Assembly: GCA_964016885.1 (NCBI GenBank) | Contig: OZ024743.1 | Coordinates: forward strand, 361,522,001 to 361,586,000 | DNA length: 64,000 nucleotides | Source: Eledone cirrhosa | Lineage: Eukaryota | Direction: 5' to 3' | Shown here: piece after piece, positions 1,601 to 63,945 of the stretch | How the letters are laid out: every line of letters begins with the position of its first letter | Position numbering within the stretch: the stretch's first letter is position 1 | The notes under the pieces: model-generated | The model's input: only the letters and a program-made list of their open reading frames with translations | What the model was told of the DNA's origin: nothing | The model's database searches: none | Translations under genes and position numbers: made by a program

Positions 1601-1883
1601 ACAAGCAAATTATAAATGTAAACATGTAAGTATGTTTTTGAAACGGTGCGCGAGTTTGAAATTATAAATTATAAATTATAAGCTTTCACCGTATTTTAGA
1701 CTAAAGAAATTTCTAGACTTATAGTGGGGTTTATAACCCTCGGAGAAATGGAAAAAGATGAGTGTTGCGGTACATTGCTCCCATGTACGGCAACACTCAT
1801 CTTTTTCCATTTCTCCGAGGGTTATAAACCCCACTATCAGGCTAGAAATTTCTTTAGTCTAAAATACGGTGAAAGCTTATAAT
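1601..1883. mobile_element. Tailed mini-palindrome in (TA)n
   Basis: Arms at 1675-1775 and 1783-1883, an unpaired left segment at 1601-1674, and (TA)n on both sides. No clear HHR core was found. Confidence 0.7.
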
Positions 1884-2010
1884 ATATATATATATATATT
1901 GGTAAACGGAAAAGAAAATGCTGAAAAATTGTTCACAGTGAAAAATAGTTTAATTAGGAATAAGTGAGAATTAGTAATAGTATTGGTTAGTATTCAGTTT
2001 TGGTTTTAAG

Positions 2011-2047
2011 TTTTACCGGTTGCGCATTTCTAATGCTTTTCAAAAAT
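2011..2047 (-). ncRNA. Degenerate hammerhead motif in a solo pLTR
   Basis: The minus strand reads TTGAAAA-GCATT-AGA-AATGC-GCAA-CCGGT-A. This is the same layout as 18008-18045, but GAAA is mutated to GCAA. Confidence 0.45.
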
Positions 2048-2230
2048 AATTTTGAGATAGAGCGTCCGTGATGTTTGCTCTAATATATATATATATAAAT
2101 TTTTTTATAGTTCTGGTATCTCGAATTAGTACCATAGAACAACAATTATATTATAGACACCCTATATATCTCTATGGGTACTTAGTACTCAGTGAGATAT
2201 TTACCTCATTTATATATATATATATATATA

Positions 2231-2912
2231 TAAATTAGCGAGAATCGTTTTCAGCTCAGGAATTAACGAAAATCAACGTCCGATATGTGTGGCAAGCGCT
2301 CGATGATTCATGTGAATCAGAGCTACAACATACGTTAAGGGCCAAACACACTGAGATGATGGTTAAACATATCATCCGCACAGCCAAAACAAACGACCAA
2401 GTAATTCGGGTCAAACAATAAAAATATATGTGTTGATACTTTCCGCCTACATAAATAATGTTGGGCTTCTGGTGAGATGATGAACAAGGAAGTCGTGTTA
2501 TCAACGGGTTTTGCTCCAAAATGCTATAGATAGTGTGGCTATTACTAACCCCACGTGGAGTTCAGCAAGGGAGGCAACACCTCTATTATGCGAATGATTC
2601 AGTTGTGTATAATATTGCGAGAATGCAAAGTATCACAAATCGAATAAAGCTCTCGGCCGAATGGTTCAATATAACAGAGCTATTCAACAGTCAATAGAAG
2701 TAACTAAAAAAATCAATAAAATTAACTGCTCAATAGCTAGACTCTGGAGATTAATACAAATATAAATTAGCGAGAATCGTTTTCAGCTCAGGAATTAACG
2801 AAAATCAACGTCCGATATGTGTGGCAAGCGCTCGATGATTCATGTGAATCGGAGCTACAACATACGTTAAGGGCCTAACACACTGAGATGATGGTTAAAC
2901 ATATCATCCGCA
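2231..2912 (-). mobile_element. Non-coding element with about 150 bp direct terminal repeats (retrozyme/non-autonomous PLE-like)
   Basis: 2231-2380 is repeated at 2763-2912 (532 bp period). It is homologous to 57806-58560, and its left end fuses with (TA)n. Confidence 0.7.
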
Positions 2913-4165
2913 TGTTTGGTTACTCCGGAGTAATGTAAAATAAAATAAAATAAATAAGTCAAATGTTTAAAATTTGGCTTCCTTTATTACTGCTATATAT
3001 ATTTCGGTGACAGCCATCTTTGGCTGTGACCTCTTCAGGCAGTCCGAATTAGTGTGGTAGAGACGAGTACACATGTTGTTGAGGTGTATAACTTTGTCAA
3101 TACTCTGATATGCCCAGTTCCTGGTTGGGTTGTTATTTCACTGAGGAACTGGAATCATATGAATTCAAACCAACGAATTTCAGCGTCAAAGGGCCTCTTC
3201 TCCTCACATTGGTCAGTTGTTAGAACATTCCTCAGTCAAAAGTCTATAGAAATTCGTTCTGAGGCAAGCCAATCTGTAGTTGTTGTTCTTGTTATTGTTA
3301 GGTACATCTTACCTCTATTCTTATGTTGGTAGTGGTGTTGTTGGCGTCACCTAAAAAAAAAGGGATAAAGTGGTAGAAGGAATAAGATGGTAAAGGAATA
3401 AAATAAAATAATCGAATAAAATGTGTGTGTATTATACACATCTCAATGTTATAAGGATTTGTAAGGTCACTCTTCCCACTGGTCTGTTTTGAGAGCATTC
3501 CTCAGTCCAAAGTCTATAGAAATTCTTTCTGGGGTGAGGCTCCCTGTAGTGTTTCTGTTTGATATTGTTAAGTACATCTGACCTCTACCCTTATTTTGGT
3601 AGTGTTGTTGGTGTTGTGGTCAGCTTATGTCTTGCTGCTGCTGACAATTTAGAAGTATCTGTGTATGTGTTTCTTCATCCCTCCTGCCACCATCTTTCGT
3701 GGTGTGTGTGTGTGTGTGGGGGGGGGGGGTATGCCATGTATATGAGGAAATAGAAGGCAATGAAATGAAGAAAACAGAAAATAAATAATAAATAGAGAAT
3801 AAATGGAAAATTAATGAAAAAGTAATGAAAAAGTAATGAAAAATGAATATGGAAAATGAAAAATGAAAAATAAAAGTGAAAAATAAAAAGGAAGATTCAA
3901 ATAAAATAAGATAAAATGTGTGTGTGCTATAAGCAATCTCAAGGTCAGAAATATGTTGGATAAAGTGGTAGGAGGAACAAGATGGTAAAAGAATAAAACG
4001 AAATAGGATAATCAAATAAAATGTGTGTGTTATAACCAATCTCAACTTAAATATCAATATAAGGTGATAAAGTGAAGAAAACAGAAAACAAATAACAAAT
4101 TAATAATGATAAATCAAAAATGAAAAATGAAAAATCAAGTAAATTAAAATATGTGTGTGTTATAA
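2913..4165 (-). mobile_element. Probable PLE 3' region (HHR plus low-complexity UTR with internal duplications)
   Basis: Carries the HHR at 2989-3043. Internal duplications occur at about 3226-3345 vs 3497-3620 and about 3363-3450 vs 3958-4045. Confidence 0.45.
2989..3043 (-). ncRNA. Type I hammerhead ribozyme
   Basis: Minus strand: ACTGC-CTGAAGA-GGTCACAGCCA-AAGA-TGGCTGTCACC-GAA-ATATATAT-A-GCAGT. It has a 5 bp stem I, a stem II hairpin, a palindromic stem III and an AUA cleavage triplet. Confidence 0.85.
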
Positions 4166-61370: not shown

Positions 61371-61654
61371 TCGTGTGTTAATTATTTCCGTGGAACAGGT
61401 AAAAGAAAAAAGAGCGCTCTATGTATAGAACATAGTTATTTAATTACATAATAAACAACACAATATAACTATTCCATTACCCAAGGTTTCACGAAGTCAG
61501 ACGATTCTAACAGAGACGTCGGAAGTTGTTCATCAGATAGAAATCTTTAATTAAAGATTTATATCTGATGAACAACTTGAAATGTTTCTGTTAGAATCGT
61601 CTGACTTCGTAAAACATTGCGTAATATAATAATTATATTGTGTTGTTTATTATA
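61371..61654. mobile_element. Old tailed mini-palindrome with an HHR in each arm
   Basis: Arms at about 61449-61551 and 61552-61654. The minus arm reads CTAT-CTGATGA...GAAACCTTGGGTA-ATGG. Unpaired left segment 61371-61448. Confidence 0.7.
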
Positions 61655-63099
61655 TAATTAAATATACATGTATATATATATATATATATGTGTGTGTGTG
61701 TATATATAATATGTGTGTGTGTGTGTATGTATATATTTGTGTGTGTGTGTCTGTGTCTGTGTTTGTATGTGTGTGTCTGTGCGTGTGTTTGTGGTGATTG
61801 AGGTGTATGTGTGTGGATTGTACATAATCCCAGATACTAGCCATCCAGTTGAATTAATGTTCAGTACACTTCTATAATAAGATCTCTTGAGAGTCTTGCT
61901 TATATGTGAATCAGTGATACATTTAGATGGAACAAGTGAAATACTATATTTAAAAGCAAATATGTAGAAAATGTTATAATATACTCTTAATTTAAATATA
62001 ATTTCCAAACATCTTGAATTGATAGCAAATTCTTCTATCTTGCCATGTAATTCATTTTGTCGTTATAAACTAATGAGTATATATAACCTGACAGAAATAC
62101 GAATCAATGAAGATCGCCGTTCTTGAATCCTTGTATATTTTAAGGATTATCTGTCGTCCAAGCCAATGTTGAGAAGCATATTTCGTTTACAACTGAAATT
62201 GCAGAGATAGACAAGAATAGTGGAATTAATCTACCAATTTCAAACATAGCATATAAGAAATTCAGTTCATAAAGTAATTCTAAAATGGTATTGCTAAACC
62301 TACAATTTTTAGATGTTAATGACTTCCTTTACCTAGGGGGGTGTAACCTAAAATAGTTGAGTGTTACGCTGCAAACCATTTGTATAATGCATAAATGAGT
62401 AAATACTTGAAACTTCTTCATGTCAAATTATTCAATATACATATTTCTCAGCGTCATCAAATCCTTCCTTCAATGATAGTCCTGAACTTTTTTGAAATTC
62501 ACCACTTTATAGTTCATTCGGTTTTTTCTTTTTCTCTTTATAAGACACATTTTAGAATCATCTTGTTGGTCCACGCCCCTTACTTTTGTTTTTGACAATA
62601 TTTTGAAAATGTTCAATATATATATATATATATATATGTGTGTGTGTGTGTGTGTGTGTGTGTGTGTGTGTGTGTGTGTAATTTGAGTTTTTCGATTCAT
62701 TTGCAACTATGCAACCAGCGTCTTTAAGCCATGTCAGTAGAATGATCCCGTCAATCTTGCTCTTGTGTTGGCATATAAACAAAACGGCAGACACTAATGT
62801 ACATGTACACACATATATATATATATATATATATATATATATATATATATATATATATATAACAAATAGTTTTATCGATGTACATGGCTGAATGTATTGG
62901 AATTTCGTATTTCTAAAGAAATACAGTATGTTTATAAATAAACATTTAGAAAGCTGTAGCTATGAAAACACCGGCGGTGTCCAGCCGAAGCCAGGGGGAT
63001 AATCATCGATGCATTTCAAACTGAACTGCTTTCTCTTCAGGACGATTCCTCTCGCTCTTGCAACTTGAAAACAGGCGAGAATATATGGTTTTCTCATAT

Positions 63100-63285
63100 A
63101 GGGTAAAGGGTAAAGACGCCCTTCAGTCACGAGTGACCATCAGATTTGAGCCTAGATAGTTACCCGTCTGAGCACAAGTCCTGGTAAGGTTTTTTTCATG
63201 GAAGACTCGCAGTTGCCCATGCATACCAGGCTCTCCTTCCCACGCAACCAAAGTTTGTTCAAGGGAAAGGCAATGGCCAATACTA
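63100..63285 (-). mobile_element. SINE/LINE 3' tail with (TTTACCC)n end
   Basis: The minus strand ends ..GTGACTGAAGGGCGTCTTTACCCTTTACCCT, an RTE-type tail. Confidence 0.5.
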
Positions 63286-63487
63286 CTCGGCAGAAGTAAC
63301 TTCGCAACTCACTTTTACAGTTGAGTAAACAGGAATATCTAACAAAAATATTTACGTTCAATCTTGAATTATAATAGCGGCGTGGACTCGGAAGGCCTGA
63401 CTCCACCCGAATAATTAAGAAACGAAACAAAACATATTATATATATATATATATATATATATATATATATATATATATATATATATA

Positions 63488-63945
63488 TTAGGTATAGGAT
63501 TACCCAAGATGTAGTAATGGTTAATTACTACACTGGATATGGTTGACGTACGGTGAGAGGTTACTCTACGAGTTATGGAAGAATTGTTGAAGAAACTTAG
63601 TTCCTGATCCTTCTGTATTCCGGAGTGTATATAAAGAATTAATAATAACAGGTAGACATCATAAAAAGGTAATTTATTCCGTATGCTTACAAATGTTTCC
63701 ACGGTGGTACTACAGCCTAGTTATGTGCAAATCTACAACTATTTGCAGAACTCTAATATCCAATGCTGTGACCACTGTATCCTGAGGATACAGTGGTCAC
63801 AGCATTGGATATTAGAGTTCTGCAAATAGTTGTAGATTTGCACATAGCATAACTAGGCTGTAGTATCACCGTGGAAACATTTGTAAGCATACGGAATAAA
63901 TTACCTTTTTATGATGTCTACTTGTTATTATTCATTCTTTATATA
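63488..63945. mobile_element. Tailed mini-palindrome of the 15598-16852 PLE family
   Basis: Tail 63488-63627, arms 63628-63783 and 63785-63945, centre CCT-G-AGG inside the HHR CTGAGGA box. (TA)n flanks. Confidence 0.85.

Follow-up and report, generated by a model that had tools for sequence, protein, structure and literature searches.

Asymmetric tailed palindromes of Penelope-like elements in Eledone cirrhosa: strict pairing of two different ends and a candidate tRNA-bearing passenger

Penelope-like elements (PLEs) that encode both a reverse transcriptase (RT) and a GIY-YIG endonuclease (EN), the EN+ PLEs, have been described with an inverted 5'-truncated copy beside a longer one, tandem units forming pseudo-long terminal repeats (pLTRs), a tail at one end and (TA)n targets (Craig et al. 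2021, Fig. 2, PMC8557442; Arkhipova et al. 2013, PMC3846280), the tail being called "optional" or "often" one-sided and given as 30-40 bp. For PAc, a Poseidon element of Anolis carolinensis, the tail was identified as the stretch between two RT start sites, and in vitro both strands of AT-rich targets were cut and extended by a protein predicted to dimerize (Frangieh et al. 2024, PMC11167929); that study connected the start sites neither within one insertion nor to inversion. Here, insertions of this kind were analyzed in a 64,000-nucleotide window of the octopus Eledone cirrhosa (GCA_964016885.1, OZ024743.1, 361,522,001-361,586,000), part of contig C4 of a 3.0-Gb genome. Each of its tailed palindromes is probably a single EN+ PLE insertion, made by double target-primed reverse transcription of a sense RNA from two start sites.

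Self-comparison of the window recovered all eight palindromes that an earlier note on this DNA had listed, each with a tail, an arm and an inverted arm; all are real and lie only a few bases from where they had been placed. They are assigned below to families A (20112), B (15022 and 32555), C (39045), D (63488), E (1601), F (61371) and G (19820).

1601-1883, no strand assigned: family E palindrome, a non-coding fragment of a 290-bp tRNA-bearing unit; tail 1601-1662, left arm to ~1775, right arm ~1778-1883.
15022-15211, no strand assigned: family B (Hydra) mini palindrome of two pLTR stubs; tail 15022-15099, arms 15100-15149 and ~15150-15211.
19820-20039, no strand assigned: old family G palindrome; tail 19820-19951, which aligns with the family A tail; arms ~81% alike; left flank not directly TA.
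20112-26616, minus strand: family A (Hydra) tail-less longer copy; arm 20112-25523 plus spacer; hammerhead core near 20309.
24249-26666, minus strand: family A open frame, RT with C-terminal GIY-YIG.
26618-32199, plus strand: family A inverted 5'-truncated copy; arm 26618-32065 and 132-nt tail 32066-32199.
32555-34151, minus strand: family B (Hydra) tailed shorter arm; tail 32555-32632, arm 32633-34151.
34152-35797, plus strand: family B tail-less longer copy; 7-nt joint insert, spacer, arm 34279-35797; GIY-YIG fragment; CCTAT end into (TA)n.
39045-41351, minus strand: family C (Nematis-like) tailed shorter arm; tail 39045-39084, arm 39085-41351.
41347-44394, plus strand: family C tail-less longer copy; RT (PF00078) and GIY-YIG (PF01541); 5-bp TCTTC overlap at the inversion joint; hammerhead-like core near 44242.
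61371-61654, no strand assigned: old family F palindrome of pLTR stubs; CTGATGA...GAAAC core, found by eye; tail of ~60 nt adjoining (TG)n.
63488-63945, no strand assigned: family D (Hydra) palindrome; tail 63488-63627, arms 63628-63785 and 63785-63945.

The arms of the three long elements are 99.1% identical over 5450 bp (20112), 100% over 1519 bp (32555) and 100% over 2267 bp (39045), and those of the five short palindromes are ~81-95% identical. In the 857-residue (41283) and 805-residue (24249) frames, the first ~20 residues are read from the opposite arm. Tails measure 62 nt (1601), 78 nt (15022 and 32555), ~132 nt (19820 and 20112), 40 nt (39045), ~60 nt (61371) and 140 nt (63488). The (TA)n flanks proposed in the earlier note are present at most of the eight, the exceptions being 61371, with (TG)n at its tailed side, and 19820, which lies 20 bp from a TA run. 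The tail-less arm does merge with the repeat as had been described, through a short TAT/AAT-type overlap (CCTAT, TTTTAT, TTTATA or TCTAAT) that is not always TA-rich.

Published EN+ PLE units resemble these elements in pLTR tandems, 5' truncation, the inverted copy and the tail. Tandem units here measure 3125 bp (C), 3118 bp (B) and 7081 bp (A), and in tandem loci of all three families the tail is the sequence downstream of the 3' end that leads into the next unit. RT and GIY-YIG occupy a single open reading frame, as in EN+ PLEs: family C matched PF00078 (E = 3e-16) and PF01541 (E = 3e-5), and families A and B, which gave no Pfam match, carry YRDD and EN motifs and share 42-47% protein identity. 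Marks of the Hydra clade include a C-terminal EN, DKT, RWK, a CxCX5C linker, CxxC, CxH and the absence of CCHH (PMC8557442), and families A, B and D have all of these, with RWR in place of RWK in A and B. Family K shares the C-terminal GIY-YIG, CxCX5C, CxH, lack of CCHH and (TA)n association with A, B, D and the Hydra clade, Hydra-1_Obim included. On their protein motifs, families A, B and D are assigned to the Hydra clade, and the likeness of the A and B proteins to published Hydra rows, one a cephalopod element, was judged by eye. Family A departs from the size given for Hydra elements ("generally <3 kb"; PMC8557442) in being 7.1 kb long with a 4-kb simple-repeat 3' region, within which ~2 kb of degenerate TA/CA repeat has been copied as part of the element (20900-23100 and 29050-31300). 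Family C has CCRLANCP...C ahead of its EN, by eye like Nematis rows and unlike Penelope/Poseidon rows, which lack a cysteine linker before GIY-YIG; with DKG and a CxxC inside the EN, it appears Nematis-like, the Nematis marks being DKG, a CCHH EN and a reduced CX2-5CxxC linker, from whose exact CxxC the linker spacing here deviates.

A type I hammerhead in the pLTR is a mark of EN+ PLEs. Predicted hammerhead cores were found in families A, C, D, H and K and none in B or F by our own motif scan, which was not exhaustive; among 150 listed of 155 Rfam matches in the window there was no hammerhead family, only sub-threshold microRNA-like matches on hairpins and microsatellites. Naiads carry the GIY-YIG ahead of the RT and have no canonical hammerhead (PMC8557442). 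The EN is C-terminal in A, B, C and D and cores occur in A, C and D, so the Naiad label of the earlier note fails, no element having the Naiad domain order, with no parent recovered for F or G; its Penelope/Poseidon label gives way to Nematis-like for family C and to Hydra for most elements. Nor are the families all unrelated, as it had supposed: 15022 and 32555 are one family, the tails of 19820 and 20112 align, and the proteins of 20112 and the 32555 family are the related pair described above. The 1601 palindrome is not a coding PLE at all. A candidate protein-binding site, the motif RYATTGAG, is common to several Hydra-type tails: it recurs in families A, B, G and J (in the window at the tails of 20112, 32555, 19820 and 19369; also locus L179) and is absent from C, D, E and F.

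Exact genome matches to arm-start patterns numbered 669 for family C, 10,663 for B and 2,299 for A, with none for reversed controls, which speaks against chance. Families D, F and K follow the same tailed-palindrome plan, K being a Hydra element of 3.25 kb whose tail ends number 15,085 genome-wide (L041:318-499; L268). With a 28-nt arm pattern for family C, 28 of the first 40 loci listed from 53 clusters on contig C1 were two-armed, 26 with two arms and 2 with a 12-18-nt tail stub as partner. The first 20 family B clusters were all two-armed, as were at least 39 of 56 family A clusters (34 with facing arms and at least 5 more on fetching). Inversion is therefore the majority product, as the earlier note had proposed.

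Its claim of two fixed, different 3' ends was likewise borne out, a minority of tail-less ends lying elsewhere. In all 26 family C pairs, one end lay at the inner site, or in a single case 9 nt within it, and the other at -40 ± 2, and all 20 family A pairs with both ends readable were mixed, the 40 stretches of this family being selected and not consecutive. For family B, the first 58 Mb of C1 contained 100 tailed and 87 tail-less matches; these formed 61 facing pairs, of which 60 were mixed, one tailed/tailed and none tail-less/tail-less; about half would be mixed if ends were independent. The one exception is an internal tandem junction (L082), and 65 matches had no partner with the exact pattern. 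Genome-wide, family B has 7563 tailed ends and 7070 tail-less ends that run into TA. An apparent longer tail in family A (-228) was rejected, the alignment having run into TA. Compared with published EN+ PLE units, the insertions here have one end of each type in essentially all counted pairs, a two-armed majority and tails of 40-140 bp; no published count of paired PLE ends was found in a search that excluded subscription papers and Repbase.

This pairing bears on the possibility that both ends are made alike, one of them being cut back afterwards to the internal TA overlap by the EN or by host repair ("EN-mediated resolution", PMC8557442), with conversion equalizing the arms. Such trimming would fit a tail-less end that always overlaps the repeat by a few bases, the minority of ends at other TA overlaps, the 100% identity of some young arms and the cutting by PAc of AT-rich sites in its own pLTR (PMC11167929). 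Against it, more than 120 pairs, young ones included, contained no tail/tail outer pair left untrimmed; moreover, two start sites have been observed directly in vitro (PMC11167929). We regard trimming as unlikely. Fold-back artefacts of assembly or library, to which the 99-100% identical arms of the three long elements might point, are scarcely credible, given diverged arms in old copies, templated inserts at joints and short reads from two other samples. These are restriction site-associated DNA reads, whose depth is biased by the restriction site. Loose ends running into TA fall precisely at the two fixed positions (2907 and 7398 reads; 2596 and 8050 reads), strand-switch joints are also present, and contigs under a second organism label have the same two ends.

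The lengths of the arms argue for two separate complementary DNAs (cDNAs). In 69 pairs compared, the tail-less arm reached further 5' in 30, the tailed arm in 7, and the two were about equal in 32; a rule that the tail is always on the shorter arm fits the three long window elements and was rejected because it fails in 7 of the 37 unequal pairs. In seven loci (L042, L064, L079, L120, L125, L159 and L167), the partner is a tail stub that does not overlap the other arm. These observations run counter to a model, proposed as self-priming in PMC3846280, in which a single cDNA or antisense template serves, after folding back, as its own primer and template. Joints in head-to-head orientation, with full symmetry in some loci (L058, L059 and L060), variants common to both arms and the inner-unit matches of multi-unit loci described below would all suit fold-back. 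A fold-back copy cannot contain sequence missing from the first strand, so the spacer in the tail-less arm of most unequal pairs and the non-overlapping stubs require two cDNAs, and stops at a sense initiator and at tRNA position 59 indicate a sense template. Fold-back is contradicted outright for the stub loci and is altogether improbable as the general route.

Within 25 family C pairs, lineage sites were concordant between arms in 44 cases and discordant in 2; the shared-variant fraction was 64% within pairs and 6% with loci shuffled, and by eye 10 of 10 family A pairs were concordant. Judged by the 44 against 2 sites, both cDNAs are from one source, with a possible contribution from conversion.

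Short arms stop at YCA(+1) motifs, namely TTCATT (A and B), GTCAGC (C) and ACCATT (D), which we take to match the animal initiator. Up to 1818 family B arms start exactly at this point. The base ahead of the start was A in 58 of 100 listed family B arms, as expected if two such ends join through AT, and T in 33, perhaps including a subfamily variant. In family B the YCA stop falls within the loop of hammerhead stem II, which favors a transcript start over a stop at a ribozyme helix.

Central joints look end-joined. Inserts, many of them templated, were present in 23 of 70, a few large ones being places where the alignment stops at old mutations, and 17 of 47 insert-free joints overlapped by at least 2 bp (18% expected; p = 0.002). 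Small overlaps or templated inserts are typical of polymerase-theta end joining. The joints also bear on whether mini palindromes spread whole from a few palindromic masters, in the manner of miniature inverted-repeat transposable elements (MITEs), as their stereotyped sizes and the thousands of family B copies might suggest. Joints differ at nearly every locus (19 of 19 family B mini loci are distinct), the commonest family A joint recurs on three different haplotypes, and sizes are continuous up to 12 kb, leaving such spread very unlikely.

Double target-primed reverse transcription would proceed as follows. The RT/GIY-YIG protein, probably as a dimer, would bind the sense transcript at the tail and cut both strands of (TA)n. 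One cut DNA end would prime at the far end of the tail and the other 40-140 nt further in, aided by a 3-6-nt TA overlap. Because both cut sides would copy RNA from two different starts, one end of each type would be the likely outcome. Both cDNAs would extend toward the RNA 5' end and terminate independently, most often at the transcription start within the pLTR, yielding the many mini palindromes, and host end joining would connect the two cDNA ends head to head. In LINE-1 twin priming, both target strands also prime cDNA and the inversion is joined by microhomology. There, the position of the second, internal primer varies and no 3' end is duplicated in the inverted piece, whereas the insertions described here have two fixed starts and two copies of one 3' region. 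PAc is similar in its two tail-bounding starts, cutting and extension of both strands, AT-rich targets and predicted dimer, the difference being that the inner site here always overlaps the target by a few bases. The two-ended, TA-targeted pathway of the earlier note is thus also our preferred reading, for a layout that was already in print.

Several observations weigh against double priming. Of the 40 family C loci, 12 are single-armed (5 tail-less, 4 tailed and 3 irregular), and some tail-less ends, a minority, lie at other positions or TA overlaps (L058, L130, L232 and L256). PAc showed no strand preference for either start site in vitro (PMC11167929). The pre-existing TA target and both start sites are what we infer, and in four contig sets examined at one locus no contig bridged an empty target site; any target-site duplication would be hidden in (TA)n. 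Shared arm variants could also stem from gene conversion. In multi-unit loci L036, L082 and L248, the short side matches the inner and not the outer unit of the long side, so that either the starts are not always neighbors on one repeat unit or the arms were homogenized later. Finally, a cap-derived G is not dominant at starts (9 of 100 listed arms in B and 6 of 21 in C).

The family E palindrome belongs to a 290-bp non-coding unit, longer copies of which hold a tRNA-like gene. RF00005 scored above its gathering threshold in 4 of 4 loci (best, 48.3 bits), and ARAGORN made a call in 7 of 10. In an array on contig C28 the anticodon is read as Ser(GGA). That array runs head to tail for ~275 kb (C28:19440900-19716500; L261-L267 and L192), its units ~5% apart; its extent is taken from 10-kb samples, of which six of seven contained 290-bp units and the seventh lay outside the array. 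As sampled, array units and dispersed copies are 4.3% apart, against 3.3% among the dispersed copies themselves, so these distances do not establish the array as their source.

Dispersed family E copies in (TA)n have a fixed tailed end and a preferred tail-less end, and of 17 pairs 14 were mixed, 3 irregular and none symmetric. Reverse transcriptase is stopped by 1-methyladenosine at tRNA position 58 (m1A58) one base before A58. Of 100 listed arms reaching tRNA position 61, 13 were cut within positions 51-61: 8 at 59, 1 at 58, 2 at 60, 1 at 61 and 1 at 54 (p ~4e-6 for 59). The right arm of the window copy, 1601-1883, itself starts at position 59, and two full copies are substituted at position 58. 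The break at 59, as expected from m1A58, suggests that family E is a non-autonomous passenger which PLE machinery of this kind probably mobilizes, and argues for a sense RNA treated as a tRNA as its template. Such RNA would probably be offered to the enzyme in trans, its tRNA-like fold and methylation stopping the RT at position 59. A T5 run lies downstream of the tRNA, and some arms end near tRNA +1; many others continue across entire upstream units, which implies a template that is not simply an RNA polymerase III monomer. A partner PLE was not found, all 40 scored matches of a tail search being family E, which weighs against the passenger interpretation, and the family E data gave no clear answer as to whether one RNA or two are copied.

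Family E combines marks of two known classes. Its tRNA-related region contains A and B boxes, as in tRNA-derived short interspersed elements (SINEs). From SINEs it is set apart by paired ends of PLE type, by copies that span several units and by the lack of a sharp 5' edge at tRNA +1. Non-LTR retrozymes (bioRxiv 10.64898/2026.07.22.740005) are likewise short non-coding tandem units with dispersed copies that are likely moved by PLEs. Family E, with its short tandem monomers, differs in having a tRNA instead of a hammerhead: no core was found in 3 copies, by a scan that was not exhaustive and also found none in B and F, and it is thus not a retrozyme by that mark. The term "tRNA" was not found in the available text of the retrozyme preprint, nor was a tRNA-bearing PLE passenger or an m1A58 footprint found in the literature searched, within the scope given above. 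Cross-family chimeras were also present: an older family E copy ends in the tail end of the Hydra family K (L197:1330-1760), another E arm is fused to the tail end of family J (L179:1300-1620), and a family C arm ends in the last 11 nt of a B tail (L044, near 7241). These suggest template jumps between PLE RNAs.

Other PLE-related insertions in the window include the following.

15589-15887, minus strand: older family D copy with a tail, 80% alike, lacking a visible partner arm.
19369-19742, minus strand: older copy with a tail, related to family A and 75% alike, lacking a visible partner arm.
36383-36450, plus strand: family B tail-only insertion between two TA runs.

Tail-only insertions of family B that end at the inner site number 33 in the genome, too rare to be informative. 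Two hammerhead-bearing copies of family H (32316-32536 and 38662-38895; 91% alike) have their 3' ends facing across 6 kb of nested insertions. A ~2-kb partial tandem between TA runs (36483-38612), with a minimal CTGATGA...GAAA near 36715 and no long open reading frame, is possibly a non-autonomous PLE. Older decayed PLE coding fragments, C-like and Hydra-like, were found by tblastn at 6171-6553, 7070-7774 and 16587-16847. Three palindromes have no tail (800-1119, 4174-4287 and 50250-50338); the first two have (TA)n at their center and may have arisen when breaks in TA were repaired by fold-back. Within 48171-54347 are two decayed RT/endonuclease regions of LINE type that are 76-80% alike, and a ~185-bp SINE-like repeat is present in more than 10 copies (7800-7983, 14389-14746, 45253-45447, 47713-47911, 55860-56084, 57432-57639 and 59814-60054); ARAGORN made no tRNA call in the window, this repeat included.

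The layout itself was known, and what is added here is the census of strict pairing, the evidence against self-priming and the tRNA passenger. A broader reading is possible and is put forward tentatively, as somewhat less probable than not: that PLE integration is an obligate asymmetric double reverse transcription, in which one dimer on one sense RNA always allots one cut DNA end to each start site and the tailed palindrome is the normal product across clades, and that a ribozyme-free, tRNA-bearing tandem repeat has hijacked it as a new non-autonomous PLE whose copies record m1A58. PMC8557442 names the origin of tandem and inverted PLE insertions and of their tails as an open question, for which antisense self-priming and endonuclease resolution have been published as explanations that are untested; the one-of-each rule, the stubs and the sense-strand stops yield a precise prediction that the in vitro system already in use could address. 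In this genome, tens of thousands of short hairpins are PLE ends that could be mistaken for MITEs or microRNA precursors, and the sub-threshold microRNA-family matches do fall on such hairpins. If the passenger interpretation is true, the tRNA-bearing unit would be a SINE-like parasite of PLEs, and the stop at position 59 would be a rare genomic record of an RNA modification.

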